NCBI GenBank assembly: GCA_964601175.1
Contig: CAZRMJ010000002.1
Coordinates: 5,842-69,841 of the forward strand
DNA length: 64,000 bases
DNA from: Candidatus Woesearchaeota archaeon
GTDB lineage: Archaea > Nanobdellota > Nanobdellia > Pacearchaeales > GW2011-AR1
Reading direction: 5' to 3'
This document shows, in pieces, positions 14,294 through 46,992 of this stretch. Below the pieces are notes generated by a model. The model worked only from the letters and a program-made list of their open reading frames with translations, had not been told where the DNA came from and ran no database searches. The translations under genes were made by a program, and so were the position numbers. The first letter of the stretch is position 1. The number at the start of each line of letters is the position of its first letter.

Positions 14294-16984
14294 ATGAATG
14301 AGGGAAGCTCTGAGGAAACTCTTGAAGGCTTAAAAAAAACATATTCTTTTTTCAAGAAAAGATTTGATGTTGTAACTTATGTTCTTCTATTTTTTGTAGT
14401 TTATCTAGCCCTTTGGATAAGAACTCGCAATCTTCCAGGATTAAGGGACATAACAACTGGAGGTTGGACCCTGGGGCCTGATTTGGATCCTTTTCTTTTC
14501 TTAAGATGGTCTAAAGATATTGTAGAAAATGGTTCTCTTTTTGTAGTCGATCCATTGCGTTATATTCCTCTTGGATATCACACCAATGGCGAACTAATCT
14601 TACTTCCACACCTTATGGCTTGGTTCCACAATTTTTTGAGCATTTTTTCTAATATTTCGATAGAACATTCAGCAGCCTTATTCCCAGTAGTAATGTTTGG
14701 CTTGACAGTAATCTCATTTTTCATATTAACAAGAGAATTATTTAGGAATAGCCTGTCTCCTCAAAAAGCAAACTATGCTGCTTTAATTTCATCAGGGTTC
14801 CTTTCTATATTCCCTTCAATATTACCTAGGACCATTGCAGGAATTCCTGAAAAAGAATCTGCTGCATTCTTTTTTATGTTTACTGCGTTTTATTTTTTGA
14901 TTAAATCCTGGAATTCTCATGGAAAATACAAAAATTATTTGTTTGCATTACTTTCAGGAATATTTACTGCCGGAATGTCTTTAATTTGGGGAGGATTTGT
15001 ATATATCTTCTTTGTTATCGGAATAGCATTACTTTCAGCTTACTTTTTACATTCGTTAAATTACAAAAAAATCTTTATAACTCTTACATGGATGATTTCT
15101 TCTTTTGCAATTATGATCCCTTATTCTAGTAGATACGATCTTTTAGGTCTTTTAAAATCTACAATGACAATTCCAATACTAATCGCAATTTTTTCATTCA
15201 TCTTAGAAGATAAGGTGTTAAAGAATTGGCACAAAAGTTATAATTTGGGAAAATATAAGATTCCTAAAAAGGCAATATCATTTTTTGCAATAGTAATATT
15301 AGGAATATTAGTTCTCACGATAGTTGATTTTAGTTTTATTGCTAAAACATTGGACAATATCAAGCAAACATTGATAGAACCTATAGTGGATAGATTTGGA
15401 GTCACTGTTGCTGAAAATAGGCAACCATATCTTAGAGAATGGACATCTAGCTTTGGTCCGACAATTGGTTCTGTTGATTTGAGTTTTTGGATAATGATTT
15501 TCGGAATAGCTATGTTTTTCTTTTCTTACTTTTCTTTTGGATCGGTTAAGAAAAAAGTCATTCTTACTTCGTCTTTTGTTTTCATGTTCTTAGCCATAGG
15601 GTTTAGTAGATATTCTCCAAGTAGTTTATTTAATGGCGTAAATTTTGCAAGTATGTTCCTTTATTTTGGATCAATTATCCTATTTTTGATTATGGCCATT
15701 AAGGCTTGCAGTAAAGAGCCTGTGGAAACGCTTTCCGGAATTAGATTTGAGAAGATTTTTGTATTGTCTGCTTTCATATTTGGATACATTGCAGCTAGAT
15801 CTTCTGTTAGAACCACTATGGTTCTTGTTCCTGCTGCTTCAATAGTTATAGGATATTTATTGACTGTAGCTACATCTAGGATGGTAAAAGATTTGAATAT
15901 GAAAAAGGTTTCTGTGGTTACAATAATATCTGCTATTATCATATTGAGCTCCATATTTTCTGCATACCAACTTTATAGAACAAGTAATGCTATTGCTAGT
16001 AGCTATGTTCCTAGTGCCTATACTCAACAATGGCAAAGTGCGATGAAATGGGTAAGGGATAGTACTCCTAAAAATGCTGTCTTTGCCCACTGGTGGGATT
16101 ATGGATACTGGGTACAAACAATAGGAGAAAGAGCAACAGTTCTTGATGGTGGAAACGCAATAGTTTATTGGGATTATTTGATGGGTAGATATGGATTAAC
16201 TGAAACGAATCAAAAAGAGACATTAGATTTCTTTTATTCGCATAATGTAACTCATTTCTTAATAGACTCTACAGATATTGGGAAATATACTGCATTTTCG
16301 AGCATAGGATCTAATGAGTCATACGATAGAAGAAGCTGGATACCTACATTTTTGAAAGACGGATCTCAAACAAGCGAAAGGAAAAATTACACCCTTTATG
16401 TATATTCTGCTGGATCAGTAATAGATAAAGATATCAAATATAATTTGAATGGATCGGAGATTTTCTTGCCTGAAGGTAAAGCTTATATTGCAGCAGTAGC
16501 AATTTCAGTAAGCAAAGAGACCGGTGAAATTTCTGAAGTGTATGGTATATACTTCATGAATCAAAAAACTTATCAGATACCTTTGAGATATTATTATTCT
16601 CAAAAAGATGGCTTTGTAGATACCGGAAAGGGCCTTGATGCTGGAATATTTATTTATCCTAGAGTGGTTTTAGACTCTCAAGGAAGTGGTGGCAGCATAG
16701 ATCCTATAGGTGCAATGCTTTACCTTAGTCCTAAGACGGTTAAGAGCAATCTTGCTAGATATTATCTTTATGGAGAAGAAAACAGTTATGTAAAATTAGC
16801 CCACTCTGAAGAAGATTCATTGATTAAATTCTTGAGATCCCAAGGTCAAAGTGTTGGAGATTTTATTTATTATAATGAATTTAAAGGACCTATAAAAATA
16901 TGGAATATTAGTTATCCTAAAGACGTTAAGTTCCATGAAGACTATGTTACCCTTGAAGCCCCTAAGTTCCTTTCTAAGGTGTAA
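14294..16984 (+). CDS. aglB: Archaeal oligosaccharyltransferase AglB (STT3 family)
   Basis: 896 aa with 13 N-terminal TM helices followed by a soluble domain. The catalytic WWDYGYW motif is present (AHWWDYGYWVQTIGE). Confidence 0.9.
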   Translation: MNEGSSEETLEGLKKTYSFFKKRFDVVTYVLLFFVVYLALWIRTRNLPGLRDITTGGWTLGPDLDPFLFLRWSKDIVENGSLFVVDPLRYIPLGYHTNGELILLPHLMAWFHNFLSIFSNISIEHSAALFPVVMFGLTVISFFILTRELFRNSLSPQKANYAALISSGFLSIFPSILPRTIAGIPEKESAAFFFMFTAFYFLIKSWNSHGKYKNYLFALLSGIFTAGMSLIWGGFVYIFFVIGIALLSAYFLHSLNYKKIFITLTWMISSFAIMIPYSSRYDLLGLLKSTMTIPILIAIFSFILEDKVLKNWHKSYNLGKYKIPKKAISFFAIVILGILVLTIVDFSFIAKTLDNIKQTLIEPIVDRFGVTVAENRQPYLREWTSSFGPTIGSVDLSFWIMIFGIAMFFFSYFSFGSVKKKVILTSSFVFMFLAIGFSRYSPSSLFNGVNFASMFLYFGSIILFLIMAIKACSKEPVETLSGIRFEKIFVLSAFIFGYIAARSSVRTTMVLVPAASIVIGYLLTVATSRMVKDLNMKKVSVVTIISAIIILSSIFSAYQLYRTSNAIASSYVPSAYTQQWQSAMKWVRDSTPKNAVFAHWWDYGYWVQTIGERATVLDGGNAIVYWDYLMGRYGLTETNQKETLDFFYSHNVTHFLIDSTDIGKYTAFSSIGSNESYDRRSWIPTFLKDGSQTSERKNYTLYVYSAGSVIDKDIKYNLNGSEIFLPEGKAYIAAVAISVSKETGEISEVYGIYFMNQKTYQIPLRYYYSQKDGFVDTGKGLDAGIFIYPRVVLDSQGSGGSIDPIGAMLYLSPKTVKSNLARYYLYGEENSYVKLAHSEEDSLIKFLRSQGQSVGDFIYYNEFKGPIKIWNISYPKDVKFHEDYVTLEAPKFLSKV

Positions 16985-17013
16985 TTAAGCTAATTTAAAA
17001 ATAATCGTTCCAT

Positions 17014-18272: not shown

Positions 18273-19034
18273 ATGAATAAACTTGCAATTGTTATCCCGG
18301 CACACAATGAAGAAAAAAGAATAGGGGCTACTCTGAAATCTTACTTATCTTATTTTAAGAATATTAAGGGGGCAGACATAATAGTCGTTATTAATGCTTG
18401 TACTGATAACACTAGAAATATAGTATATCAAAATAGAAATAATCGCTTAAAAATTTTAGAGTTTGTCAAAGGTGGAAAGGGTTTTGCAGTTATTGAAGGT
18501 TTTAGATATTCATTAAATAATGATTATGATTTTGTAGGCTTTGTAGATGCTGATATGTCAACGAAACCTGACGAATTTTATAGACTTTTTTCAAAAATTA
18601 AAGGATGTGATGGAGTTATAGCCAGTAGATATTTAAGAGGAGCTAAATTAAATCCCAAAAATACATTTCTTAGGATTATTGCTTCTAGAGTATATAATTT
18701 GTTTATTAGATCGCTATTAATGATCCCTTATAAGGACACTCAATGCGGGGCTAAGATTTTCAAGGCTAGTTCATTAGGAAAAATTATTGATACTTTGGGA
18801 ATGACAAGTTGGGCCTTTGATATAGAACTTTTATATAAGCTTTCTAAAAAAGGATTCAAAATCTTGGAAGAACCTACTATCTGGTCAAATAAGGAAGGAT
18901 CTAAAATAAACTTTTGGCAATCTGGTCCTTGGATGGCACTCGCAGTCTTTCGTTTGAGAATCCTTAATTCTCCTTTTAAAGATGTTGTTAGAGCATATGA
19001 TAAATTTATAGGTATGTTTAAACCTGCTAAATAA
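18273..19034 (+). CDS. GT2 glycosyltransferase, Dol-P/polyprenol-phosphate sugar synthase-like (DPM1/AglD-like)
   Basis: IVIPAHNEEKRI...VVINACTDNT...FVDADMST is a GT-A DxD fold. Confidence 0.7.
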   Translation: MNKLAIVIPAHNEEKRIGATLKSYLSYFKNIKGADIIVVINACTDNTRNIVYQNRNNRLKILEFVKGGKGFAVIEGFRYSLNNDYDFVGFVDADMSTKPDEFYRLFSKIKGCDGVIASRYLRGAKLNPKNTFLRIIASRVYNLFIRSLLMIPYKDTQCGAKIFKASSLGKIIDTLGMTSWAFDIELLYKLSKKGFKILEEPTIWSNKEGSKINFWQSGPWMALAVFRLRILNSPFKDVVRAYDKFIGMFKPAK

Positions 19035-19035
19035 T

Positions 19036-19515
19036 ATGGTAAAAAATATTGCTATAATAACCTCCAAAGGAGGGCACCTTGGACAGATGAAACTCCTATT
19101 TACGGATAAAGTTATAAGAAAAGATAATTGCATACTCATAACTGAAGATATTAAACCTTCTATCAAAAAAAACTCTTTTTTAGGAAAATACACTACTTAT
19201 TTTTTTAAGAAAGATTTGCTCCTTAGGCTTAACCCATTTAATTATTTGAAAACTTTAATTCAGATTATCAAAATTTTAAAGAATGAAAAAATAAATTTGA
19301 TATTTACAAATGGTGCTCAAATATCAATACCTGCCGTTATTGCTGGAAGAATTCTTGGAATAAAAACAATATTTATAGATACTGTCATAAGAGTAAAAAC
19401 TCCTAATTGGTCCGCTAGAGCTTGTTATATTTTTGCTAGTGAATTTTGGGTTCAACATAGCAACATGGCTAAAAAATATGGTAAAAAATCTAAATATGTT
19501 GGAGGAATAGTATGA
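19036..19515 (+). CDS. Alg14-like subunit of split UDP-sugar glycosyltransferase
   Basis: 159 aa; N-terminal IAIITSKGGHLGQM matches the Alg14 G-GGH-x-EM motif. Overlaps the next gene. Confidence 0.7.
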   Translation: MVKNIAIITSKGGHLGQMKLLFTDKVIRKDNCILITEDIKPSIKKNSFLGKYTTYFFKKDLLLRLNPFNYLKTLIQIIKILKNEKINLIFTNGAQISIPAVIAGRILGIKTIFIDTVIRVKTPNWSARACYIFASEFWVQHSNMAKKYGKKSKYVGGIV

Positions 19516-19979
19516 TTTTCATTACAATTGGGACTCACCCTGATCAATTTGATAGGCTCATAAGAAGAATAGATGAAATTGCTCCAAAAATAAATGAAAA
19601 GATAATAATTCAAAGAGGGTTTACTAAATATGCTCCTAAAAACTGCGAATATTTTGATTTTACTGATAAAATGGATGAATATTATAAGAAGGCAAGAATA
19701 GTTATCGCTCAATCTGCAACTTCTCTAATAGAGTTTATCTTAAAATATGGCAAACCAGTCATAACTGTTCCAAGAGAGTCTAAATATAAAGAACATATAA
19801 ATGACCATCAAGTTGAATTTGCAGAATATTTTGCTAAAAGGGCAGGAGTTCTTCTCATTAGAGATATGAATCAAATTACTCCTAAATTACTCTTAAGCTA
19901 TAATAAAAAACCTAAAATAAATTTGGAAGGTTTGCATAAGTTACAGGATTTGATAAAAAAGGTTATTGATAACTCATGA
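19512..19979 (+). CDS. Alg13-like (GT28 C-terminal domain) catalytic subunit of split glycosyltransferase
   Basis: MIFITIGTHPDQFDRLI...GKPVITVPRE...NDHQVEFAEYFA matches the Alg13/MurG C-terminal domain. Confidence 0.7.
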   Translation: MIFITIGTHPDQFDRLIRRIDEIAPKINEKIIIQRGFTKYAPKNCEYFDFTDKMDEYYKKARIVIAQSATSLIEFILKYGKPVITVPRESKYKEHINDHQVEFAEYFAKRAGVLLIRDMNQITPKLLLSYNKKPKINLEGLHKLQDLIKKVIDNS

Positions 19980-20629
19980 TTTCTGCAGATAATAGAACCG
20001 ATTATATAATTAAGTTAGCTGAACTCAAAAGGAGTGATTCTGTTTTAACAATAGGAATATCTAACATTCCTGAAATTGAGAGAATAATAGAAAAAAGAGT
20101 AAAGTTATGTGCTTGTATAGATTTGGATAAAAATAAACTAAATCATGCTAAAAAATACCTGGAAAAAACTAAACTAATTTTTGCAGATATATTGAATCCC
20201 CCTAAAGACATTTTTGGAAACTTTGATACTGTGATTATGCTTGAAGTTCTTGAGCACATAGATAATGATGGTGCTGTAATTAAAAATATACATAAAATTT
20301 TGAAAAAAAATGGAAAATTGATATTGACTGTTCCAAATAAACACCCATTACATTTGATTAATCCAGTAAAATACACCCAACATAAAAGACATTATAGCAT
20401 GGAAGATATTATTAAAGTTTTAAAAAATGGTCAATTTAAAATAGATTTTACAAATACGGTTGAATCTCCAAAACTAATTTTTGATTTATATGTGCACCTT
20501 TTTTGTAAATATATCCTTAATAAAAACGTTCCATTTGCAATACTTACAGGAAAGAAAGATTCTACTTATTTAAAAATTAATAAAGATTCTAAAGGTCTTG
20601 ATTCTTTAGTTGTTGCTTCGAAAATTTAA
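19976..20629 (+). CDS. Class I SAM-dependent methyltransferase (type 11)
   Basis: ...VIMLEVLEHIDNDGAVIKNIHKILKKNGKLILTVPNK. Confidence 0.7.
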   Translation: MISADNRTDYIIKLAELKRSDSVLTIGISNIPEIERIIEKRVKLCACIDLDKNKLNHAKKYLEKTKLIFADILNPPKDIFGNFDTVIMLEVLEHIDNDGAVIKNIHKILKKNGKLILTVPNKHPLHLINPVKYTQHKRHYSMEDIIKVLKNGQFKIDFTNTVESPKLIFDLYVHLFCKYILNKNVPFAILTGKKDSTYLKINKDSKGLDSLVVASKI

Positions 20630-21618
20630 ATATATTTTATAAAATTTTTTATTTTAGAGGTAGTTACAAAACCATATAAAAGAGTCATGAAGAATACGTA
20701 AAATGGGTGCATAACCCAGTAAAATTTTTTCGTTCTATACATTATAGGTAAAACTTGAATTAAGGGTACAATTAAAGTTAAATTTGTTAAAACCATTATA
20801 AAGAATCTAAAGATGCTTGGAGGATTGCCGACTTTTGTCCAGTTAAATGATTTGTGTTCATATTCTTTATCTATGAATCTATGGAAATATATTGCTTTTT
20901 TCTTTAAAAAACTAAACATATTATTAGAGGTTTTATGGTAAACTCTTGGCTTTATGTGCACTGCTACTTTCATATTCTTGCTGGCCATTGATGCAGATAC
21001 ATCCACATCTCTAGTATACCCGTTTATTATTTTGAATACTTTTTTTCTGAATGCGCATCCGTTGGCACCTATAAATAAAATATTTCTTTTTGAAAGGTTA
21101 TAAGTGTAATAATCTCCATCTTTTTTAAATTTAGACGGATTTAAAATTATCTGGGAAGTTAAAGAATAAGGAGCTGCAAATGGATCTTCTACTCCTAAAG
21201 CATTTACATATCTTAAAAAGTTAGTATCTTTTTCTTGGGGAGAGGTTAGCGATTGCGAGGCCATTATATTTTTATCTTTGAATGGTTCTAAAATGTGTTT
21301 TAACCAATCCCTATTAGTAAGAATATTATCGTGATCTAAAAAAATAATGAATTCTCCTTTGGCCCTGGATACACCTTGATCTTTCCCATTTCCCCTACCT
21401 TCAGATAATTTGTTTGGATTATTAAAGAGTTTTATGCCTTTTTCCCTTTTCATGTAAGATTTCACTATATCAATAGTCTTATCCTTAGAACCTCCATCGA
21501 TTATTATTATTTCATAGTCTTTTTTTGAAAAGTCTTGCATTAATATGGAATCAATGCATTCTTTGAGGGTTCTCTCTGCATTGAGTATTCCTAAGATGTA
21601 ACTTACTTTTATTGCCAT
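20626..21618 (-). CDS. GT2 glycosyltransferase with C-terminal membrane anchor
   Basis: ILGILNAERTLKECIDSILMQDF...EIIIIDGGSKDKT...FLDHDN, plus C-terminal TM helices. Confidence 0.75.
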   Translation of the reverse strand: MAIKVSYILGILNAERTLKECIDSILMQDFSKKDYEIIIIDGGSKDKTIDIVKSYMKREKGIKLFNNPNKLSEGRGNGKDQGVSRAKGEFIIFLDHDNILTNRDWLKHILEPFKDKNIMASQSLTSPQEKDTNFLRYVNALGVEDPFAAPYSLTSQIILNPSKFKKDGDYYTYNLSKRNILFIGANGCAFRKKVFKIINGYTRDVDVSASMASKNMKVAVHIKPRVYHKTSNNMFSFLKKKAIYFHRFIDKEYEHKSFNWTKVGNPPSIFRFFIMVLTNLTLIVPLIQVLPIMYRTKKFYWVMHPFYVFFMTLLYGFVTTSKIKNFIKYI

Positions 21619-23435
21619 TATAATTTTATTTTATCTGGTTTAATATTATCTACATATATTTTATTCCAAAGTTCCAAGTTTAGAAGTGTCCAAATCTTAT
21701 GATCATTTCTATAATCTGTAGGTTTATTGATTAAGTTAGTTATTTCACTTGTCTTCAAAATTCCTCTTTTACTTAAATCAGAGATATGAGGACTTATTCT
21801 ATCTATGAAATCATTTTTTGTAGACCAGGTTGAAATTGGTAAGCTAAAACCTTGTTTTTTTCTTTTAATTATTTGCTCAGGAAGTTTATTTTTTATTACT
21901 TCTCTGAATAATTTTTTGTTTATCTTGTATTCTCTTTTTATGTTAAACATATAGGCGATTAAATCTTTATCTAAGAAAGGAGTCCTAACCTCTAAGCCAT
22001 GAGCCATGCTGGTTTTATCTACTTTCATTAAAAGGTCATTTGGAAGCCACTCTTTAAAGTAAAAATTAATTGAAGTTTTGTAAAGATCTTTTTGTAAATA
22101 ACTATCCAATATATTGCTTACATCATCCCCGGTATATTCTTTAATCTCTTGTTCATTAAATGGGAAATAATACAGCTTTTTGTAAGCTTCTTCTAGATTT
22201 TTGCTGCTTAATAATGAAGATCCGAAGTTATATATTTGTTTTTTAGGATATTTATTTAAAGAGGACATTAATTTTAAAGTTTGAGATATTGCGTAAGATA
22301 TTGGTCTTGGAATTTTATTAATTTTGTTTAATAAAGATAACCTGTTTATAGTATCATAACCTCCAAAAATTTCGTCTCCACCTTCTCCAGATAAAGCCAC
22401 TTTAACGTGCTTAGAAATTTCTTCTGAAAGGACGTATGTTGGAAGAGCTGCAGGATCTGAGATCGGTTCATCCATATGATAAACAACTTGGGGCAAATAA
22501 GATAATATATCTCTGTCAAGCATTATCTCTTTGTGATCTGTACCAAAATGCTCTGATACCAACCTAGAATATTTAGATTCATCAAGCCCTTCAGTAAAAC
22601 CTACCGAAAAGGTTTTTACTTTGTCTACTTTTCTTGACATGTAAGAAACTATCGCGCTAGAATCTAAACCTCCTGACAATAAAACCCCTACAGGTACATC
22701 AGAAATAAGCCTTTTTTCAATAGACTTTTCTAAAATTTCATCCAGTTGGTTTAAATCAGGATCTTTTTCTTCATTTAGGTTTGGAAGACTCCAATAATTG
22801 AATATCTTTAATTCTCCTTTGGAGAATATTCCGTATGAAGATGGGGGCAGTTTCTTTATGTCTGAAAAAACAGTATCGTTTCCAGGAGAAAACCTGGACA
22901 TTATAGTTTTAAGCATAATCTCTTTAGATATTTGATTAGATACTTCCGCTTCTAGGAGAGACTTTATTTCGGATGAAAAAATTAATTCTTTGTTCTTTAT
23001 TGAATAATACAATGGTTTTTTTCCGATCCTATCTCTTGCTAATATAATCTGTTTCTTTTTCTTATCATATATTGCTAACGCGAACATTCCATCAAGCATC
23101 GAAAAGATATCTGTTCCATAAAGATCATAACCTCTTAGAATAACTTCTGTATCGCCATCACTTTTAAATTTCAAACCCTCTTCAATAAGTTTACTTTTTA
23201 TTTCTTTGAAGTTATAGATTTCCCCATTAAAAACAATAACTAGAGATTTATGTTCATTAAACATTGGTTGATTACCCTTTGGGGAAAGATCTATTATGCT
23301 CAATCTTCTGTGCCCCAATGAGATATTTTTATCGGTAAAATGTCCACTGGAATCTGGACCTCTATGTGCGATGCAAGAAGTCATTTTTTTTATTAAAGAT
23401 TTATCTTCCCATGAAAACCCCGTTATTCCGCACAT
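21618..23435 (-). CDS. asnB: Asparagine synthase (glutamine-hydrolysing)-family amidotransferase
   Basis: 605 aa; N-terminal MCGITG Cys nucleophile, GATase-II domain plus PP-loop SGGLDSS synthetase domain. Confidence 0.85.
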   Translation of the reverse strand: MCGITGFSWEDKSLIKKMTSCIAHRGPDSSGHFTDKNISLGHRRLSIIDLSPKGNQPMFNEHKSLVIVFNGEIYNFKEIKSKLIEEGLKFKSDGDTEVILRGYDLYGTDIFSMLDGMFALAIYDKKKKQIILARDRIGKKPLYYSIKNKELIFSSEIKSLLEAEVSNQISKEIMLKTIMSRFSPGNDTVFSDIKKLPPSSYGIFSKGELKIFNYWSLPNLNEEKDPDLNQLDEILEKSIEKRLISDVPVGVLLSGGLDSSAIVSYMSRKVDKVKTFSVGFTEGLDESKYSRLVSEHFGTDHKEIMLDRDILSYLPQVVYHMDEPISDPAALPTYVLSEEISKHVKVALSGEGGDEIFGGYDTINRLSLLNKINKIPRPISYAISQTLKLMSSLNKYPKKQIYNFGSSLLSSKNLEEAYKKLYYFPFNEQEIKEYTGDDVSNILDSYLQKDLYKTSINFYFKEWLPNDLLMKVDKTSMAHGLEVRTPFLDKDLIAYMFNIKREYKINKKLFREVIKNKLPEQIIKRKKQGFSLPISTWSTKNDFIDRISPHISDLSKRGILKTSEITNLINKPTDYRNDHKIWTLLNLELWNKIYVDNIKPDKIKL

Positions 23436-27383: not shown

Positions 27384-28262
27384 ATGAATCCCCGAGTAAT
27401 TGTTTTCGGTTCCACAGGGTTGATTGGCTCCAACGTGCTTAAATCTTTAAGAGATCATGAGTTTAATGCTGAAGGAACCTCTAGAAGTGGGAAATATTCT
27501 ACCTCAAAGTTAGATATTACTAGAAGAGAAGACTTAACTGATTTTTTAAACTCTCGCCACCCTGAGGTCATCGTTAATTGTGCTGGAGTAGTAGGAGTCA
27601 ATGAATGCAACAGAGCTCCCTATGATTCTCTAGAAGTTAATACTTCTTTTGTTGGGAATATCTCAAGGTACTGTTCAGATAATGGTGCCAAGCTAGTTCA
27701 TTTATCCACTGTTGCAGTCTTTGATGGCAATAAGAAAACTCCTTATGAAGAAAAGGATCATCCAGATTTCCTTCAAGGGAATTTATACAATATAACTAAG
27801 GCAACAGCCGAAGCCATTGCAAGTTTAGTTCCAGATAATGTAATAATAAGAGTGGGAGATACTTATGGACTTTCTGCATTGCCTGAGAGGACTATTGGAG
27901 GAAGCGTATTTAGATATGCGTTTAATCAGTTGAAAAGTGGAAATGTTCTTGGAGCTTTTAAGGGGGTTATCACTAATCAAACTCTTCTTCAGGATATAGG
28001 ATCCTATGTCTGTTCATTGATTGAATCTGGGTTTTCTGGAAAAATAAATCTTGGAGGCGAGAGAGTTGATATCAGACAATTTTTTGACATGATTAAATCT
28101 ACATTCAACTTGCCTGGAGAAGTAATTGATGCTGAGTTGCCAAGTAATTATCAATCAAATCGTGCGCTTAATTTAAGTACAATGGAAAAGGAGGGCTTTG
28201 TAGTCAGACCTGTTGCTGAGGGTTTGGGAACTCTAGAAGATTATTTAAAAGCACAAAATTAA
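27384..28262 (+). CDS. NAD(P)-dependent sugar-nucleotide reductase/epimerase, RmlD-like (dTDP-4-dehydrorhamnose reductase family)
   Basis: 292 aa; N-terminal Rossmann VIVFGSTGLIGSNV. Confidence 0.65.
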   Translation: MNPRVIVFGSTGLIGSNVLKSLRDHEFNAEGTSRSGKYSTSKLDITRREDLTDFLNSRHPEVIVNCAGVVGVNECNRAPYDSLEVNTSFVGNISRYCSDNGAKLVHLSTVAVFDGNKKTPYEEKDHPDFLQGNLYNITKATAEAIASLVPDNVIIRVGDTYGLSALPERTIGGSVFRYAFNQLKSGNVLGAFKGVITNQTLLQDIGSYVCSLIESGFSGKINLGGERVDIRQFFDMIKSTFNLPGEVIDAELPSNYQSNRALNLSTMEKEGFVVRPVAEGLGTLEDYLKAQN

Positions 28263-38331: not shown

Positions 38332-39558
38332 ATGATATTTATGATTAGAGCTCAATGTCTTGTATGTTCTTCTAATGAAGTTACGGATATAATTGATCTT
38401 GGAATGCATCCATTTGCAGATACTTTTGTTCCTGAATCTAAAGAAAGCGATAATGATGTGATTTACCGCCTGGTATGTAGCCTATGCTTAAAATGCGGGC
38501 ATGTTCAAAATAAATATGAAACAGATCCTATCAAAAGATATTCTCAGATTGATTACTCTTACACTTCTTCTAACTCTCAATTTGCAAGAGATCACTGGGA
38601 TAAATATGCTAAAGAAATCTCTGCTGAAATCGGATTAGATAAAGGATTAGTGATTGAAATAGGCTCTAATGACGGTTATCTTTCTGAGCAATTTCTTAAA
38701 AAAGGAAACAAAGTATTAGGAGTTGATCCTTCTCCTTATATGGCAGACTTAGCAAAACAAAGAAACATCTCAACTATTGTAGGCTTATTTGGATCAAAAT
38801 ATGTAGATGAAATTTTAAGTAAATATGGGAAGGCAGATTTAGTTTGTGCGAATAACGTTTTCAATCATTCAGATAATCCTTCTGATTTTGTAAAAGCAGT
38901 TTCTGAAATTTTGAAGGATGATGGGAGTTTTGTATTTGAACAACCATATTGGATAGATACTCTAAAGACTGGAAAATTCGATCAAATCTATCATGAACAT
39001 GTAAGTTATTTTACTGTTAAATCTGCTAAGGAGCTTTTAGAAAGGGCTGGATTGAAGATAAAGTCTTCAGAAATTGTAAACTACCACGGAGGATCTTTAA
39101 GAATAATTGCTCAAAAAAGCGATAATGTAAAAGAAAGCGATAATGTAAAAGAAATGATCTCTAATGAGGAGAGTTATGGTGCTTTTAAAATAGAGACTTA
39201 TAAAAAGTTCATGGAATCTTTGAAAATTCAAAGAAGTAAATTTATGCAAAAAATACATCATTTAAAGGAGAAGAATATTCCTCTAATTGCGGTAGGTGCA
39301 GCTGCAAAAGGAAATACATTCCTTAACTTTTATGGCTTAGATAACACAATTATTGATTATGTAACAGATGCATCTCCGCATAAGAAAGGCAAATATACTC
39401 CTGCCACAAGAATACCCATAGTAGGAGATGAGATATTCTCCAAATATGAAGATGTGTATGCCATAATTTTATCTTGGAATATTGCAGATCAACTTAAGAA
39501 TATATTATCTAGATATAATGATAAAATAAATTTTATTTCTCCTGTGCAGAGCATATGA
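38332..39558 (+). CDS. NDP-hexose C-methyltransferase-family protein (TylC3/EryBIII-like: Zn-ribbon + SAM MTase + C-MT C-terminal domain)
   Basis: N-terminal CLVC...CLKC zinc ribbon, VIEIGSNDGYL motif I and a C-terminal domain; contains an 18-bp tandem duplication (SDNVKESDNVKE). Confidence 0.65.
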   Translation: MIFMIRAQCLVCSSNEVTDIIDLGMHPFADTFVPESKESDNDVIYRLVCSLCLKCGHVQNKYETDPIKRYSQIDYSYTSSNSQFARDHWDKYAKEISAEIGLDKGLVIEIGSNDGYLSEQFLKKGNKVLGVDPSPYMADLAKQRNISTIVGLFGSKYVDEILSKYGKADLVCANNVFNHSDNPSDFVKAVSEILKDDGSFVFEQPYWIDTLKTGKFDQIYHEHVSYFTVKSAKELLERAGLKIKSSEIVNYHGGSLRIIAQKSDNVKESDNVKEMISNEESYGAFKIETYKKFMESLKIQRSKFMQKIHHLKEKNIPLIAVGAAAKGNTFLNFYGLDNTIIDYVTDASPHKKGKYTPATRIPIVGDEIFSKYEDVYAIILSWNIADQLKNILSRYNDKINFISPVQSI

Positions 39559-39980
39559 TAGAAAGAATATATTCAAAGGTAAATCCTTCTATACTCCTGC
39601 ATATTTTACATACTAATTCTGGGCTTAATCAAAAAATAGAGGATAAAAAAATTCATAGTTTGACTGATCCGGAACATTTTTTGCAAGCAATGTTTTTTGA
39701 AATGCCTGCTGGAACGAAAAGCAACCCTCATAAACATAACCTTCAAGAAAGAAGAACCACCCATACGCATGAAGCACTTTTGCTTTTGAAAGGGTCTATT
39801 GAATTAAATATTTATGATATTGATGACAGTTTTGTTGAGACGAAGATTCTGAATGAAGGAGACTGCTATGTTCTTATTAATGGGGGGCATAGCATAAAGA
39901 CCATTACAGATTCTAAATTTTTTGAGTTTAAAAATGGACCTTACTACGGAAGCGAGAAAGATAAAACAAGCATTAATTGA
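39555..39980 (+). CDS. Cupin-domain protein (candidate sugar-nucleotide epimerase/ketoisomerase)
   Basis: 141 aa; PHKHNLQERRTTHTHEALLLLKGSIELNIYD resembles cupin motifs (His-x-His...Glu). Confidence 0.5.
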   Translation: MIERIYSKVNPSILLHILHTNSGLNQKIEDKKIHSLTDPEHFLQAMFFEMPAGTKSNPHKHNLQERRTTHTHEALLLLKGSIELNIYDIDDSFVETKILNEGDCYVLINGGHSIKTITDSKFFEFKNGPYYGSEKDKTSIN

Positions 39981-40012: not shown

Positions 40013-41110
40013 TTAATTTATCATACCCATAGACTTCAACATCTCTTTTGCTTTTTCTATATAAAACCCTTTTTGGTTGTTATTGTCTTTATCAACTAGG
40101 ATTAATCCATTTTCTTCGAATTGTTCCTTTAGATCTGCTTCGAGCATTGTATGAACTAATTCTTTGAATTTTATGGAAGGTACCCATCCCAAAAGCCTCT
40201 TTGCTTTTGAAGCATCTCCTAATAAAGCGTCAACTTCTGCAGGTCTTTTGTATCTATCTGAAACTTCAACATATTTTTCATAGTCTAGTCCTAAAAGAGA
40301 AAATGCTTCTTGCAAAAACTCTCTAACTGTATGAGTCTCCTCTGTTGCAATAACAAAATCCTCAGGCTCATGATGTTGAAGAATAGCCCACATTGCTTTA
40401 ACATATTCCTGTGAATGCCCCCAATCTCTTTTTGCATCTAAATTGCCCATAACTATTTTTTTTGCGTGTCCCATGACTATTCTGGATAATTCTCTTGTAA
40501 TTTTACGAGTTGCAAAATTAATTCCCCTTCTAGGAGATTCATGATTGAATAGTATTCCGTTACAAGCAAATAAGCCATATGCCACCCTATACAATCTTGT
40601 GAAATTAAAAGCTGCAACTTTTGATACTCCATAGGGGCTTTGAGGTTTGAATGGAGTTTCCTCATTTTGAGGAGGAGGTGATGCTCCAAACATTTCAGAA
40701 GAGGATGCTTGGTAATATTTGCATTTTAGTCCTGAATGATGTATTGCATCTAATAGCCTTAATGTTCCTAGCGCATTTATATCAAAGGTTGTTGCAGGAT
40801 TTTCAAAACTTATGCCTACATGACTTTGAGCAGCTAAATTATATACCTCATCCGGTTTTACTTTTTCCAAAATATTTCTTAAACTAGAAGCATCTGTAAG
40901 ATCTGCATGGTAACAAACAAACTCTTTTTCTGAGTCTTGGCTATAATTCATCTTCTTTAGAAGATGTTCTATTCTCCCGCTATGAATACTACTTGAACGC
41001 CTAACTATTCCCCTTACATAATATCCCTTATCTAGCAAAAATTCTGCCAAATACGAGCCATCTTGTCCATTTACTCCTGTAATCAGAGCTACTTTTTTTC
41101 CATTTAACAT
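40013..41110 (-). CDS. gmd: GDP-mannose 4,6-dehydratase
   Basis: 365 aa; N-terminal KKVALITGVNGQDGSYLAEFLLDKGYYVRGIVRRSSS is near-identical to the canonical Gmd pattern. Confidence 0.9.
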   Translation of the reverse strand: MLNGKKVALITGVNGQDGSYLAEFLLDKGYYVRGIVRRSSSIHSGRIEHLLKKMNYSQDSEKEFVCYHADLTDASSLRNILEKVKPDEVYNLAAQSHVGISFENPATTFDINALGTLRLLDAIHHSGLKCKYYQASSSEMFGASPPPQNEETPFKPQSPYGVSKVAAFNFTRLYRVAYGLFACNGILFNHESPRRGINFATRKITRELSRIVMGHAKKIVMGNLDAKRDWGHSQEYVKAMWAILQHHEPEDFVIATEETHTVREFLQEAFSLLGLDYEKYVEVSDRYKRPAEVDALLGDASKAKRLLGWVPSIKFKELVHTMLEADLKEQFEENGLILVDKDNNNQKGFYIEKAKEMLKSMGMIN

Positions 41111-42987: not shown

Positions 42988-43818
42988 TTAAATCTGCGTC
43001 TTTTTAATCTCGGATAGATAGTCTTTAAGTGCAATTTTCCAGTTTCTAATTTCGTTATTTTTTGAAATTAAAGCTTCACTTTGAGATCTTTGAGATGAAT
43101 TACTTAAAGTTTTATAAGAGATTAATTTCAAATCGAGATTTTTTCCGGTTAATAGCACGCACTCTTTTGCAACGTCTGCTGCTGAAGCATATCCTTCATT
43201 AACTAAATGAATTACTTCATTTCGATTAGAAATAATTAATCTCTTCAATTCATTTACAAAATCTTTTATGTATGTTGGAGATCCAAATGAGTCGTATGTG
43301 GCAATTATTTCCCCTTCATTCTTTTCATTTAATAGTTTATCTATGAATTTAGTAAATCCATTTTTTTTATGAGCAATTCCAAATAACCATCCAGTTCTTA
43401 TTATAAGGTAATTTTTTGAACTATTTTTTAATAAAATCTCTGCAAGATATTTAGTTTTTCCATATACATTTATTGGATTTGGAATATCTAATTCGGTAAA
43501 CCCATTTGAATTTCCGTTAAAAACTGCTCCGCTTGAGATCAAAATTGTTAGAGAATTGTATTTATTGGCTATTTTTATTACATTATTAAAACCGTTTACA
43601 TTTACATTCATTGCCATGATAGGGTTGCTTTCTGATGAAGCTAAATCTACTGATGCAAGGCATATAACTGCTTGCGGAGAATATTTTGAAAAAATCATTT
43701 CCACATCTTTTAAATTAGCAATATCTAAATCTTTATGGCCCAATTTTATCCCAAAGTCAAGTTCTTGTCCTATGGTGCTATCTTTTCCTATTATTAATAC
43801 TTTTGAGAGGTCTATCAA
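42988..43818 (-). CDS. RmlD-like NAD(P)-dependent reductase/epimerase
   Basis: 276 aa; LIIGKDSTIGQEL Rossmann. Confidence 0.55.
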   Translation of the reverse strand: MIDLSKVLIIGKDSTIGQELDFGIKLGHKDLDIANLKDVEMIFSKYSPQAVICLASVDLASSESNPIMAMNVNVNGFNNVIKIANKYNSLTILISSGAVFNGNSNGFTELDIPNPINVYGKTKYLAEILLKNSSKNYLIIRTGWLFGIAHKKNGFTKFIDKLLNEKNEGEIIATYDSFGSPTYIKDFVNELKRLIISNRNEVIHLVNEGYASAADVAKECVLLTGKNLDLKLISYKTLSNSSQRSQSEALISKNNEIRNWKIALKDYLSEIKKTQI

Positions 43819-45044
43819 AATTCCTCCACCTTCAACTCAGGAAAGGGGATTATTACTTTAAATGAAGGCATTATCTCTTTTAATCTTCTTATGAAACTAT
43901 CTTTATAATTCCAAGAAAATAGAATAAAAGTCTTATTATCTTTTTCTTTTTTCAATGAATCTGTAGACATTACAGGAACGTGAACTCCAGGCACCAGTCT
44001 TCCTTGCTTAAGAACAGTATCATCAACAACATAGTCGAGATCATTCGGAGTAATTCCAATATAATTCATCATCACTACGCCTCTTGCAGGAGCTCCAAGA
44101 CCAATTAGTTTTCCATTACTTAATTTCTCTCGTTCTATCAATTCCCTTATTTCTTTCCTATAATTCTCTACTTTTTTATTTACTTCAGAATAGACTTGTT
44201 GGTTATCTAAACCAATTAATTTTTCTTCAGATAATAATTTGTTTACGGATTCACTTACTGGTTTTGCGTACTCATCTTTCATAGCTGAAATTCTTAATGA
44301 TCCTCCTTGAGTTGGTATTTTTTCTACATCTACTATTGTAAGTCCAGCCATCCTAAATGTAGATATTAAAGAGTGTAATGAAAATGTGTATACGTGCTCG
44401 TGATAAATGGTATCAAACTCTCCCCTTAACACTGTATCTAACGCATAAACCCCTTCCATTACTAAAACTCCGGAGTCTTTCATTACTAACCTAGCTGCCT
44501 TAAGTAAATCTATATTATTTGGAGTATGAGGAATGACATTTAATGCAAGTAATAGGTCATATTTTCCCTTTTCTTTAACTATTTTTGAAGCAGTCTTTGT
44601 GTCAAAAAATTCGGATATGTATTCGACTTGTTTTTCTTTATTTAAATCCGATAAATTCTTTGCAGGATCAACCCCTAAAATATTTTTTGTATATGGTTTA
44701 AAAAATGAAAGCAAGGTGCCATCATTAGAGCCTATTTCTAAAATTTTTGTGCTTTCATCTATTTTGAATTTATCTTTTATATAAGATGCAACTTCCTTCA
44801 GATGATTTATATTTGACTCAGATCCAGAGGAAAGATGAAGATAGTTTCTGAATAGCTCTTCAGGAGGAACTATTTCTTCAAGTTGGACCAAATAGCAATT
44901 TGGACAATATGCTAGGTTTAGAGGGTATGCCTTCTCTTTACTAACTTCTGATTCTTGTATAAATGCATTTACTGGAGGGATATTTCCTAATTCCAAAAAT
45001 CTATTCATCCCCTCAAAACCGCAGGATTTGCATTTTAATTCCAT
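43815..45044 (-). CDS. NDP-hexose C-methyltransferase-family protein (second paralog)
   Basis: 409 aa; CKSCGF...CPNC zinc ribbon, ILEIGSNDGTL; same architecture as the 38332-39558 protein. Confidence 0.65.
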   Translation of the reverse strand: MELKCKSCGFEGMNRFLELGNIPPVNAFIQESEVSKEKAYPLNLAYCPNCYLVQLEEIVPPEELFRNYLHLSSGSESNINHLKEVASYIKDKFKIDESTKILEIGSNDGTLLSFFKPYTKNILGVDPAKNLSDLNKEKQVEYISEFFDTKTASKIVKEKGKYDLLLALNVIPHTPNNIDLLKAARLVMKDSGVLVMEGVYALDTVLRGEFDTIYHEHVYTFSLHSLISTFRMAGLTIVDVEKIPTQGGSLRISAMKDEYAKPVSESVNKLLSEEKLIGLDNQQVYSEVNKKVENYRKEIRELIEREKLSNGKLIGLGAPARGVVMMNYIGITPNDLDYVVDDTVLKQGRLVPGVHVPVMSTDSLKKEKDNKTFILFSWNYKDSFIRRLKEIMPSFKVIIPFPELKVEEF

Positions 45045-45054: not shown

Positions 45055-45843
45055 TCAATTTGCCCTATTAAAAACTTTGTTATAGTATAAACCTGCTCTT
45101 GCTAGAATGAATTGAGCTAAGACCCAAAAACTCCTTATTGCATACCAACTTGCTCCCTTTATTGAATGAGAAGTATGATCTGCATGGTAATCTGCTTCTA
45201 CGGGAACTTCCTTAACAGGCATTCTGTAATATGCCGCTTGTGCTATTATCTGGAAGCTAAATAAGTAGTCATTAGTATTAGCTTTGTAAGGGACTTTTTC
45301 GATAAGTTTTCTTCCATAAATTCTAAATCCTGTGTGAAACTCAGTTAATTTTAATCCAAGTATTAGCCTATCAAAGAAACTAAGTCCCCTGTTTGCTAAA
45401 AATCTTATTAAAGGCATCCCATTTTTTAGCGCTTGCCCTGGAACTGTAAATCTTGACCCTAATATAAGTTGAGCATTTCCCTCTTGCATAAAAGGCATTG
45501 CATACTTTATAGAGATTGGATTGAACTGTGCTCCGTCTCCGTGAATTTCAACTATGTAATCTGCTCCCATTTCTAAAGCCTTTTTTATCCCTTCTTTTAG
45601 ATTTCCGCCGTATCCCCTATTTGGAACATGCCTAAATGATTTAATTCCCAATTTTTTAGCAACTTCATAAGTTCCATCTTTAGATCCATCATCCATTAAT
45701 ATCAGATCATCTAAGAGTCCTTTTGGGATTGCTCTTATTCTTTCAATGGCGCGTGGCAACATTTTTGCAACATTATATGCTAATATAACTCCTATTACCT
45801 TGGGTTTTTTCCTCGAAGAAATAGCCTTTTTTCCCGTTACCAT
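45055..45843 (-). CDS. GT2 polyprenol-phosphate glycosyltransferase (DPM1/GtrB-like)
   Basis: VIGVILAYNVAKMLPRAIERI...LILMDDGSKDGT...VEIHGDG. Confidence 0.75.
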   Translation of the reverse strand: MVTGKKAISSRKKPKVIGVILAYNVAKMLPRAIERIRAIPKGLLDDLILMDDGSKDGTYEVAKKLGIKSFRHVPNRGYGGNLKEGIKKALEMGADYIVEIHGDGAQFNPISIKYAMPFMQEGNAQLILGSRFTVPGQALKNGMPLIRFLANRGLSFFDRLILGLKLTEFHTGFRIYGRKLIEKVPYKANTNDYLFSFQIIAQAAYYRMPVKEVPVEADYHADHTSHSIKGASWYAIRSFWVLAQFILARAGLYYNKVFNRAN

Positions 45844-45915
45844 TTAGGACAGTTTAATAAAAAATGTTTATAAACTTATATGTGGACTTGTTTAAATTAA
45901 TCTTAATTAAAATCT

Positions 45916-46992
45916 CTAATGCTGAGATTCTCCACCATTTGACCATCTCGGACTTGATGCCAGACTATAGTTGATTATTGGTTCCTTGATGATTTTCTTC
46001 ATAACTTCTAAATTATAATATTTGGAATCATCCATATTTTCTAATTTTCTAGAATTAACAGCTTCTTCGATCTCCTTCAAACCATGCTTAATGTCATATA
46101 GGCATTTGAAACTACAAATCTTTTCAAATTTCTTGAAACTTACCCTGTAAGATCTATTATCTTTATTTTGGTCTATTTTTTCTATTTTTGAATCTTTGAA
46201 ATGATTTGCTATTAATGGCACTAAATCTTTAATCATAAAATTAAGATCACTATTTCCAACATTGAAAACTTGTTTATTAACAATATTAGAGTCTTCTTCT
46301 AATACTGTAATAACTGCCCTACTTGCGTCTTTTACATGCAGAAATGGTCTGTACTGAGTCCCATCACCATTCAGAATTATACTTTTTCCTTGTAATGCTC
46401 TCTTTGCCATCACATTTACTGCAAGATCAAACCTCATTCTAGGAGAATATCCGAATAAAGTTGCGAATCTTAATGCAGTTACTGAAAATTTAGAGTCTGC
46501 CATCGGGAAAAGAGCATTTTCACATTGTAATTTTGATAAAGCATAAAGAGTCACTGGACCAACATCTGATTGCTCATCAAGAAACTTTGCACCGCTTGCC
46601 CCATAAACTGAACAAGATGAAATAAATATAAATCTCTTAATTCCTTCTGCTTTTGCTCTTCTTGCTAGAGACATTGTAGCTAAGAAATTTGTTTGTATTG
46701 TTAAATTGGGATCTAGATCTCCTGAAGGATCGTTAGAAAGTCCTGAAAGATGGATTACTGCATCTACTCCGTCAAATAAATCAGGAATATTCTCATGATG
46801 GGCTATATCCATTTCAGTAACTTTTAGATTGGGATTACTTAGATGACTTTCAATAGGATTTTTTCCAAAATAAAAAGTATCCATTACATGTACCCTATAG
46901 TTCTTCTCCAAAAGCATTGGAACTAATATGGACCCTAAATATCCAGCTCCCCCAGTTACTAAAATTTTTTTGTTATCTGCGAAATCTTTCAT
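45916..46992 (-). CDS. NAD-dependent epimerase/dehydratase family protein (nucleotide-sugar epimerase)
   Basis: 358 aa; ILVTGGAGYLGSIL Rossmann. Confidence 0.75.
   Translation of the reverse strand: MKDFADNKKILVTGGAGYLGSILVPMLLEKNYRVHVMDTFYFGKNPIESHLSNPNLKVTEMDIAHHENIPDLFDGVDAVIHLSGLSNDPSGDLDPNLTIQTNFLATMSLARRAKAEGIKRFIFISSCSVYGASGAKFLDEQSDVGPVTLYALSKLQCENALFPMADSKFSVTALRFATLFGYSPRMRFDLAVNVMAKRALQGKSIILNGDGTQYRPFLHVKDASRAVITVLEEDSNIVNKQVFNVGNSDLNFMIKDLVPLIANHFKDSKIEKIDQNKDNRSYRVSFKKFEKICSFKCLYDIKHGLKEIEEAVNSRKLENMDDSKYYNLEVMKKIIKEPIINYSLASSPRWSNGGESQH

Follow-up and report, generated by a model that had tools for sequence, protein, structure and literature searches.

Exchangeable loci for surface glycans are known from both bacteria and haloarchaea. 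In Alteromonas and Pelagibacterales, replacement islands place different gene sets of equivalent function at a fixed site, where homologous recombination in the flanks swaps them, both inside a species and from one species to another, without the help of mobility genes (PMC4898812, PMC11898729). Among the haloarchaea, a strain-variable region of ~37 kb that includes aglB distinguishes Halorubrum lacusprofundi R1S1 from ACAM34 (PMC6011602), and strain-specific agl clusters have been described in Haloferax and Halobacterium salinarum (PMC5867893, PMC11407970). In the published interpretations, these variable regions either answer to pressure from viruses or represent serotype-like surface types (PMC6011602, PMC5867893, PMC11407970). 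Here, we describe a locus of this kind in a 64,000-nucleotide stretch of DNA (the window) from an archaeon deposited as Candidatus Woesearchaeota (assembly GCA_964601175.1, contig CAZRMJ010000002.1, forward-strand positions 5,842 to 69,841). Positions 14294-46992 of the window hold 30 back-to-back open reading frames (ORFs), the first of which encodes the oligosaccharyltransferase AglB. The host is a Pacearchaeota/Nanoarchaeota (DPANN) archaeon, and homologues in public metagenome-assembled genomes carry the names Pacearchaeota, Nanoarchaeota or Woesearchaeota (DPANN). What is new is the DPANN/Pacearchaeota instance. With a probability of about 0.8, we read this N-glycosylation or surface-glycan (agl-type) cluster as a flexible genomic island of the replacement type (a 'glycotype' locus) that is exchanged by homologous recombination.

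According to this reading, the island would occupy a fixed site between a left block (ribosomal-protein operon, secY and a gene for a SpoIIM-like protein) and a right block (secDF). Recombination in these flanks would exchange the entire 32.8 kb between lineages, oligosaccharyltransferase gene included, and smaller cassette swaps would take place inside it. At the population level, the exchange is observed directly. Exact-protein look-ups retrieved a conspecific strain on a contig of 674,342 bp (JGI Ga0172278_1397), whose loci to the left and right of the island are called L088 and L083, respectively. The left flank (3393-14293) is 99.08% identical in DNA between the two strains over 10,901 bp and the right flank (47073-59316) is 98.59% identical over 12,244 bp, both ungapped, with flank proteins at 98-100% identity. 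In the parts of the island that were compared, no protein exceeds 49%: AglB is 49% identical, the first flippase 35%, and the others are 25-45% identical or absent. The length of the island also differs, from 32.8 kb in the window to 28.1 kb at the same site in the conspecific strain. Although its genes are divergent or different, the conspecific cluster repeats the general plan, with AglB, a flippase, GT2 glycosyltransferases, a methyltransferase, a PMT_2 enzyme and a GT4 glycosyltransferase, and then a CgeB-like protein, a cupin, a flippase, a PMT enzyme, a methyltransferase and a GT2. The whole cluster, including aglB, is replaced as a unit between strains with ~99% identical flanks.

Both borders of the replaced segment are resolved to ~50 bp. 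On the left, a sliding measure of DNA identity to L088 is 0.96-1.00 before position 14300, where it drops to 0.30-0.72. On the right, identity to L083 rises from 0.36-0.50 to 0.94-0.98 at 47062-47112, in the spacer between the last gene of the island, which encodes a short-chain dehydrogenase/reductase (SDR), and an ORF of 92 amino acids (aa). The variable segment matches almost to the base the block that an initial annotation, made from the sequence without database searches, had delimited. The limits of that block are exact, since the STT3/AglB ORF has its ATG at 14294 and the last SDR gene, on the minus strand, starts at 46992. Because the source is metagenome-derived and hypervariable regions are prone to misassembly, a foreign glycan cluster might have been joined to host flanks during assembly or binning. 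Nevertheless, we find such an artefact hardly credible. The passage from the left flank into the island is spanned independently by Logan assemblies of two samples (L089, from SRR1027651, 20.9 kb at 98.8%; L090, from SRR16481182, at 100%) and the right junction by L174. In addition, the same architecture is found in relatives, and the codon usage of the island and its GC content at third codon positions (GC3) match those of the flanks. A scan of metagenome contigs with the SpoIIM-like protein gave no conspecific locus, its best match being 89% identical.

Related loci were collected from an AglB scan of a genome collection (80 loci) and from a scan of metagenomes with the SpoIIM-like protein (80 loci). 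In 71 of the 80 genome loci, aglB has a SpoIIM-like gene no more than 10 kb away, and all seven loci that were mapped have this gene immediately upstream of aglB, so the site is conserved. The identity of AglB is decoupled from that of the neighboring SpoIIM-like protein. Among 110 loci, the median AglB identity is 50% for pairs whose SpoIIM-like proteins share 95-99% identity and 47% for pairs at 60-70%; AglB thus remains on a plateau of 45-50% whatever the identity of the flank. In the genus-level clade, defined by a SpoIIM-like protein at least 80% identical to that of the window, 35 loci (some retrieved twice) fall into 20 AglB clusters when proteins at least 70% identical are grouped. Another four pairs of loci combine near-identical flanks with different AglB proteins (L095/L097, L104-105/L107-L015, L119/L121 and L115/L116), and AglB clusters cut across the identity classes of the SpoIIM-like protein. 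The AglB of the window itself is at most 50% identical to that of any of 121 related loci.

Island types are also shared between species. For instance, the island of the conspecific strain is colinear with that of L002, which belongs to another species (SecY 89% identical), with AglB at 70% and the other genes at 60-80%. The first 12 kb of the island in the window are colinear with L009, L004 and L006, from related species; in this stretch, the Alg14/13 pair is 78-82% identical and the GT2s, AsnB, PMT_2 and GT4 55-72%, while AglB and the flippase reach only 46-51%. The gene pool of Pacearchaeota, and not a foreign phylum, appears to be the source of the genes that are exchanged. Alternatively, the agl locus might be a core one, inherited vertically and evolving very rapidly at its site, with no replacement or horizontal exchange; this view would fit the constant position of the SpoIIM-like gene, the colinearity of the left 12 kb with three species and an island composition that matches the host genome. 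We regard it as very unlikely, since flanks that are ~99% identical enclose an AglB at 49%, a flippase at 35% and a different gene set, and the shift in identity takes place within ~50 bp at both borders. Moreover, neither the AglB plateau nor the island types common to several species agrees with it. The locus is accessory rather than core, as had been proposed in the initial annotation: a conspecific strain with nearly the same flanks carries a wholly different cluster, and at least 20 AglB types occur at the site. The two findings that would have spoken against that proposal, a gene content conserved as a core and an AglB devoid of catalytic residues, were looked for and neither was observed.

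In addition to the replacement of the whole island, smaller changes are seen within it. A third lineage (L082, JGI 3300045396) carries the same island type, in which the GT2, AsnB, PMT_2 and GT4 proteins are 94-95% identical in amino acids and the dehydratase 98%. This lineage has no counterpart of the RmlD-like gene 27384-28262, and its version of the gene at 26247-27299, an orphan without Pfam family that is discussed below, is only 62% identical. These differences delimit a swapped cassette of ~2.1 kb (26210-28216 in the window, 5490-6703 in L082) in islands that are 92-97% identical elsewhere, and the cassette coincides with codon-usage outliers. For the methyltransferase gene 33107-33853, the loci L009 (9193-9924), L004 (9224-9937) and L006 (9221-9934) each carry a homologue with 60-63% identity in the interval that separates the SpoIIM-like gene from aglB. 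In the window, the gene is found 19 kb further in and on the opposite strand; its position beside the SpoIIM-like gene and aglB in those three loci indicates that it has been relocated.

Base composition adds little to this picture. The GC content is 0.313 in the island and 0.337 and 0.331 in the flanks, GC3 is 0.226 in island and flanks alike, and the island shows no significant difference in codon usage when this is scored against the flank genes (Mann-Whitney p=0.11). For these reasons, composition was rejected as evidence for transfer; the scan of GC and codon usage that the initial annotation had suggested gave no foreign signal. The orphan gene 26247-27299, the RmlD-like gene 27384 and the flippase gene 17014 are mild outliers in codon usage. 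The first of these had been singled out as compositionally foreign. It is indeed the strongest codon outlier, with a GC content of 0.398 against the island mean, but its GC3 of 0.305 lies within the range of the flanks. Similarly, the earlier description of a mosaic, horizontally exchanged locus holds on account of the conspecific replacement and the 2.1-kb cassette, whereas the strand switches, of which there are seven in the island, and the composition that were then invoked are weak evidence.

How the island moves is suggested by what it lacks. None of the 30 island ORFs matches an integrase or transposase family or a capsid or terminase domain in Pfam, and the search for att-like, direct or terminal repeats at the borders gave only chance-level matches. 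Without mobility genes or border repeats, the exchange most likely proceeds through homologous recombination in the conserved flanks. That the island is a mobile element or provirus, integrated together with its glycosylation genes, is barely conceivable. The window does contain tRNA genes and a gene for a tyrosine recombinase (61814-62641), which could be taken for the traces of such an element; nevertheless, they lie 3-15 kb outside the junction, in a stretch whose conservation in the alternative strain is 98.6%, and an island free of integrase, transposase, capsid and terminase genes, with no direct repeats at its borders, does not fit a provirus.

The features that define replacement islands in Alteromonas and Pelagibacterales, and O-antigen or capsule loci in general, are also found here: a fixed site, replaced content, types that cross species boundaries and no mobility genes. 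By contrast with these bacterial loci, the product would presumably be a dolichol-linked protein N-glycan and not a lipopolysaccharide O-chain or a capsule, and AglB, the equivalent of the ligase, lies inside the swapped unit as its first gene. With the haloarchaeal agl regions, the locus shares an archaeal host, a similar size, the presence of aglB and variability between close strains. It differs from them in the phylum and lifestyle of the host, in versions that are at most 49% identical in every gene, in borders that are sharp at base-pair scale, in at least 20 AglB types within one genus-level clade and in its predicted C-methyl and dideoxy sugar chemistry. The literature consulted held no description of a glycotype island in Pacearchaeota or other DPANN, although its coverage was incomplete and absence is therefore not proven; a paper on groundwater viromes (PMC12960796) contained nothing relevant to DPANN glycan islands.

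The first protein of the island is AglB, as had been annotated from its WWDYG motif. PF02516 is found well above its cut-off of 24.5 bits (Table 1) and spans aa 64-491 of a protein with at least 11 hydrophobic segments. The motif WWDYGYW (aa 600-606) aligns with WWDYGYW of Pyrococcus furiosus AglB (2ZAG), and a DK-type motif, DIGKYTAF (661-668), aligns with DWAKFNAI of the same structure, with F instead of I/M as its last residue. GPDLDPF (61-67), IPEKES (184-189) and TVAENR (371-376) are candidates, by inspection only, for the acidic, metal-binding motifs of external loops 1, 2 and 5 (DxD, a second acidic motif and TIxE/SVSE). Against TIGR04154, the model of the STT3 subfamily associated with archaeosortase A, the protein scores 73 bits, below the cut-off of 450, and, as judged from these scores, it is a generic AglB outside that subfamily.

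In Haloferax volcanii, soluble glycosyltransferases (AglJ/G/I/E/D), encoded by genes clustered around aglB, build the glycan on dolichol phosphate (Dol-P), a protein of the MOP family flips it, and AglS, a multi-pass Dol-P-mannose mannosyltransferase of the membrane, attaches a last sugar on the outside of the cell. A second flippase-like protein, AglR, and AglS serve the same N-glycan, which AglB transfers to Asn. By analogy, the island may follow the same logic of glycosyltransferases, MOP flippase, membrane transferase and AglB. The split Alg14/13-like enzyme is a point of difference. To our knowledge, Gmd, the 3-dehydratase, the C-methyltransferases and AsnB have no counterpart in the agl cluster of H. 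volcanii. The GGH motif has been described before (10.1101/2021.01.19.427365). As far as can be judged from sequence, the adjacent Alg14 and Glyco_tran_28_C halves of the island, with GGH in the former, resemble eukaryotic Alg14/Alg13, bacterial EpsE/EpsF and archaeal Agl24, but no N-terminal transmembrane (TM) helix is present. The Alg13/14 clade is associated with GlcNAc and the chitobiose core, the EpsE/F clade with Glc or Gal.

Domain content and known pathways point to four steps. In the cytoplasm, Gmd would produce GDP-4-keto-6-deoxymannose, from which the ColD-type 3-dehydratase, the C-methyltransferases, the cupins and the RmlD-like and other SDRs would derive 3,6-dideoxy and/or C-methyl-branched 6-deoxyhexoses; a sugar acid would be amidated by AsnB, and the small methyltransferases would carry out O-methylation. 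Next, the GT2, GT4, Alg14/13-like, CgeB-like and new GT-A enzymes would assemble an oligosaccharide on Dol-P. The GT2 beside the first flippase is a candidate for an early or initiating Dol-P glycosyltransferase, and the AsnB-type protein for the amidation of a sugar carboxylate. The MOP flippases would then bring the lipid-linked glycan, and probably also a Dol-P-monosaccharide, to the outer face, where the two PMT_2 enzymes, which belong to the GT-C glycosyltransferases, would add terminal sugars in the manner of AglS. Finally, AglB would transfer the glycan to Asn residues of surface proteins. Gmd thus may supply GDP-4-keto-6-deoxymannose, and the other enzymes suggest C-methyl-branched deoxy sugars (C-methyltransferases, cupins and RmlD-like reductases), amidation (AsnB) and O-methylation (small methyltransferases). 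A glycan with deoxy, C-methyl, O-methyl and amidated sugars, as predicted in the initial annotation, is plausible.

The island could instead serve two or more glycoconjugate pathways, with a left module (from AglB to the GT4) for the N-glycan and right modules, with flippase 2, the PMT-type GT-C enzyme, Gmd and the C-methyltransferases, for an O-mannosylation-like protein modification or for a separate lipid-linked or secreted polysaccharide. The presence of two MOP flippases and two PMT_2 GT-C enzymes would fit such a division, as would the colinearity of the left module alone with other species and the recurrence of a PMT-plus-flippase pairing on the right side of alternative islands. We hold it to be rather unlikely, given that the whole block is swapped as one unit between conspecific strains, that no Wzy-type polymerase or chain-length regulator was detected in Pfam scans of the island, and that AglR and AglS of Haloferax both serve one N-glycan.

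The 3-dehydratase (28279-29817) helps to define the sugar that may be made. It scores 204 bits against Yersinia E1 (3BCX) and 142 bits against ColD, and is thus closer in sequence to E1. Its segment SFYGSHHIT aligns with SFYPAHHIT of 3BCX, in which a His (E1 His220) replaces the Schiff-base Lys; the H220K mutant (3BB8) has K at this place. The alignment shows a deletion in place of the Cys-rich Fe-S segment of E1 (DCYCAPGCDNTC...), and no E3/ferredoxin-reductase-type gene was found by Pfam among the island ORFs. The catalytic His, together with the lack of the Cys loop and of an E3 gene, suggests an E3-independent, ColD-like 3-deoxygenation. With 256.5 bits against RfbH (PRK15407, cut-off 423), the protein is a member of that family and not an equivalog. 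In comparison with the pathways for GDP-colitose (Gmd-ColD-ColC) and CDP-3,6-dideoxyhexoses (E1/E3), Gmd and the catalytic His are common to both sides. The dehydratase departs from E1/E3 in the missing loop and E3 partner and in its fusion to a C-terminal domain of replication factor C (RFC); as to the Gmd-ColD pathway, its homologue in L092 and L093 sits with an NTP-transferase/4,6-dehydratase fusion and not with Gmd.

The RFC tail (117 aa, 29464-29814) is a complete C-terminal (collar) domain of the RFC small subunit, corresponding to residues 235-325 of P. furiosus RFCS (E=1.3e-12). The fusion is confined, among the 120 best of 3048 homologues of the dehydratase, to the window and a relative with 98% identity (P0001). 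Between these two strains, pN/pS is 0.16 in the tail (7 synonymous and 4 non-synonymous changes; P=0.004 against neutrality) and 0.14 in the body of the enzyme, so the tail looks selectively maintained rather than a dead relic. The possibility that an rfcS gene was disrupted at this site and left the tail behind was considered and rejected, because no N-terminal part of RFC lies nearby: its AAA+ domain was not found by tblastn of the window, the 80 genome loci, L001 and L082, nor by a Walker-A scan of the window.

The orphan gene 26247-27299 has no Pfam or NCBIfam match, and its distant relatives likewise belong to no Pfam family. A word-indexed search of 5.8 billion proteins returned 9 relatives, and a profile search returned 12 cluster representatives below 1e-30. 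The AlphaFold2 model (pLDDT 85.4, pTM 0.87) gave 24 Foldseek matches in the PDB at E<=1e-3, all of them GT-A enzymes (TM-score 0.35-0.53), including GpgS, GtrB, MGS, MpgS and DPMS. The motif D113-S-D-R is conserved or nearly so across the family, whose conserved motifs are YxDSDR, LRYEAPEQMRG and HxWTPECY. On the strength of the model, the protein can be read as a member of a previously unmodelled GT-A family. Its gene is adjacent to an RfbH-like dehydratase gene in the window (with one gene between them), in L082, in L092 (10001-11059) and in L093 (10001-11068), and the locus tags of another pair of orphan-family and dehydratase proteins (P0246 and P0006, FJZ18_03410/03415) are consecutive. 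In L092 and L093, the cluster also holds the NTP-transferase/4,6-dehydratase fusion, an RmlC-like cupin and homologues of GT2s 30815 and 32144. The orphan probably acts as the transferase for the product of the dehydratase. A GT-A family tied to the 3-dehydratase and a selectively maintained dehydratase-RFC-collar fusion are possible side findings of this locus.

Several points weigh against the reading as a glycotype island. The conspecific comparison involves one alternative strain, with 8.9 kb of its mid-island, at 429666-438543 of the contig, outside the comparison, and no donor of the AglB allele in the window emerged, its best match being 50% identical. Since composition and codon usage match the flanks, a foreign origin is not demonstrated by composition. 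The identity of the sugars and the order of the steps are deduced from domain content, and two flippases with two GT-C enzymes fit either an AglR/AglS-like decoration outside the cell or a second glycan pathway. In addition, none of the 30 island ORFs matches a nucleotidyltransferase family (ManC/RmlA) or the AglH/Alg7-type family PF00953; activation and initiation would therefore depend on genes elsewhere, unless one of the GT2s initiates. Finally, the selective agent, viruses or host recognition, is a presumption.

Table 1. Island genes, junctions and conserved anchors, in window coordinates
Feature	Position	Strand	Evidence or remark
SpoIIM-like membrane protein, left conserved anchor	13393..14253	+	PF01944; last core gene before the island; 100% identical in L088
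Left recombination junction at the aglB start codon	14294..14300	.	identity drop against L088
AglB/STT3 oligosaccharyltransferase, 896 aa, ~11-13 TM helices and C-terminal soluble domain	14294..16984	+	PF02516 43.1 bits
MOP/Wzx-type flippase 1, ~10 TM helices	17014..18249	+	PF13440, PF01943
GT2 beside flippase	18273..19034	+	PF00535; homologues in 59/80 loci, position conserved
Alg14-like half of split GT-B enzyme, GGH at aa 12-14	19036..19515	+	PF08660 39.9 bits (cut-off 27)
Alg13-like (Glyco_tran_28_C) catalytic half	19512..19979	+	PF04101 61.1 bits
Small S-adenosylmethionine (SAM) methyltransferase	19976..20629	+	PF08241, PF13489
GT2	20626..21618	-	PF00535 93 bits
AsnB-type glutamine amidotransferase	21618..23435	-	PF00733 293 bits, PF13537
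GT-C (PMT_2) membrane glycosyltransferase 1, ~8 or more TM helices	23435..25048	-	PF13231 64.7 bits
GT4 (GT-B)	25088..26206	-	PF00534, PF13439
Pfam-less glycosyltransferase of predicted GT-A fold, DSD motif (orphan)	26247..27299	-	predicted structure
RmlD-like SDR reductase	27384..28262	+	PF04321; absent from L082
Pyridoxamine-phosphate-dependent NDP-4-keto-6-deoxyhexose 3-dehydratase (E1/ColD family) fused to RFC C-terminal domain, aa 396-512	28279..29817	+	PF01041 and PF08542
SDR epimerase/dehydratase, 312 aa	29848..30786	+	PF01370, PF16363; best NCBIfam dTDP-glucose 4,6-dehydratase, below cut-off
GT2	30815..31627	+	PF00535, PF13641; 53-54% identical to gene near RfbH-like gene in L092, L093
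Small SAM methyltransferase	31629..32147	+	PF08241
GT2	32144..33106	+	PF00535
Small SAM methyltransferase	33107..33853	-	PF13489
MOP flippase 2 (Polysacc_synt/MatE/MurJ-like), ~13 TM helices	33847..35436	+	PF01943, PF01554
Short RmlD-like SDR, 247 aa	35474..36217	+	PF04321 126 bits, N-terminal half only
Cupin-like ORF with in-frame TAA	36207..36587	+	read from sequence
CgeB-like (Glyco_trans_1_2) glycosyltransferase, 557 aa	36589..38262	-	PF13524 76 bits
NDP-hexose C-methyltransferase 1 (Zn-finger, SAM and C-terminal domains)	38332..39558	+	PF08421, PF13489, PF08484
WbuC-family cupin	39555..39980	+	TIGR04366 37.7 bits, just below cut-off 42
GDP-mannose 4,6-dehydratase (Gmd)	40013..41110	-	TIGR01472 446.1 bits (cut-off 415); PF16363 414 bits
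GT-C (PMT/PMT_2) membrane glycosyltransferase 2, ~10 TM helices	41153..42964	-	PF13231, PF02366
Full-length RmlD-like 4-ketoreductase	42988..43818	-	PF04321 133 bits, positions 2-285 of 287
NDP-hexose C-methyltransferase 2	43815..45044	-	PF08421, PF08484, PF13489
GT2	45055..45843	-	PF00535
SDR epimerase/dehydratase, 358 aa, last island gene	45916..46992	-	PF01370 167 bits
Right recombination junction	47062..47112	.	identity rise against L083; blastn alignment end 47073
92-aa membrane ORF, 147-aa ORF, SecD and SecF, right conserved anchor	47076..50230	.	99% identical in L083; Pfam SecD_SecF_C

According to the ORF list and the Pfam and NCBIfam scans, 29 of the 30 island ORFs have a sugar-related domain or fold. 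Only one glycan-related ORF (GT2 62672) was found among the scanned flank ORFs, so the enrichment is far beyond chance. The gene content agrees largely with the initial annotation: its two MOP flippases, two GT-C enzymes, GT4, CgeB-like protein and split Alg14/Alg13 were all found by Pfam, and Gmd, the ColD-like gene, two C-methyltransferases, three RmlD-like proteins, two further SDRs, three small methyltransferases and AsnB were recovered too. Six GT2s had been counted; five lie inside the island, and a sixth GT2 lies outside it, at 62672. Both C-methyltransferases have the three-part architecture of TylC3, with all domains above their cut-offs, and they are 32% identical to each other; in general, the paralogues inside the island are old (21-37% identity). 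Of the two cupins that had been listed, both are present, but the ORF 36207-36587 has an in-frame stop: 76 aa are followed by TAA at 36435-36437 and then by 49 aa in the same frame. It is probably a pseudogene or the result of a sequencing error, although the TAA may alternatively be read through; with the stop masked, the protein matches no Pfam family. A frameshift as the cause of the short RmlD-like protein just upstream was rejected, since the downstream ORF is this separate cupin.

To the left of the island lie the ribosomal-protein operon, secY and genes for EMC3-like, prefoldin, eIF2B-like and SpoIIM-like proteins; to the right lie two small ORFs, secD/secF, three tRNA genes, a 5S rRNA gene, an ABC/MacB system and further ribosomal and RNA-polymerase genes. 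Four conserved flank ORFs have no Pfam match: 47076-47354 (92 aa), 47355-47798 (147 aa), 52675-53514 (279 aa) and 55946-56833 (295 aa). The 92-aa protein has three predicted TM segments, and in all relatives inspected its ORF and the 147-aa ORF mark where the island ends on the right. The tRNA genes (Gly-TCC, Arg-CCT and Leu-CAA, at 50241-51160) and a stand-alone 5S rRNA gene (51214-51329) occupy the interval between secF and the ABC/MacB operon; an Rfam scan found the tRNAs and one 5S rRNA and nothing else, and the ORF 50231-50977, which overlaps the tRNA genes, is probably spurious. Further to the right, the tyrosine recombinase, which is XerA-like, is followed by a GT2 (62672-63562) that is DPM1/GtrB-like by Pfam. 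In 14 other genomes, homologues of this GT2 are found no more than 10 kb away from aglB, and in L092 and L093 they stand beside the dehydratase module; the GT2 may be a Dol-P-sugar synthase that feeds the PMT_2 enzymes. In L086 (1-4601), a relative of L002, the right flank is interrupted, on the far side of the ABC ATPase gene, by a DDE transposase together with ~12 small unannotated ORFs. This insert is absent from the window and could represent an additive island of its own or a mobile element.

The distinctive traits of the locus are a base-resolved replacement that includes the oligosaccharyltransferase, the many AglB types in one clade and the share of the genome that a sub-megabase symbiont invests in it. 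In practice, the arrangement of SpoIIM-like gene, aglB and following genes, and secD is a ready marker for 'glycotyping' Pacearchaeota in metagenomes, and glyco-engineering can draw on the locus for sets of AglB, flippase and glycan that match one another.

The genomes of DPANN archaea, Pacearchaeota among them, are very small, and attachment to other cells is their presumed way of life, which makes the cell surface both the place of host contact and the site of virus attack. The initial annotation's presumption of a small genome holds. The conspecific contig, with its 674 kb, gives a lower bound on genome size, and the island thus makes up at most 4.9% of the genome. Up to ~5% of the genome in a fully replaced cluster, together with at least 20 AglB types, implies strong diversifying selection on surface glycans despite genome reduction. 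The variation between strains would give each lineage a distinct surface identity, with viruses and/or the specificity of attachment to the host as the presumed selective agent. We tentatively extend this idea to one that is possible, if doubtful: that the oligosaccharyltransferase is not a housekeeping enzyme but a co-swapped component matched to the glycan, and that dozens of AglB classes (~45-50% identical) are kept, with their cognate flippase and glycan genes, as a trans-species polymorphism by virus- or host-driven frequency-dependent selection. If this were true, the locus would be a natural library of oligosaccharyltransferase, flippase and glycan specificities, and possibly a determinant of the hosts to which these archaea can attach.

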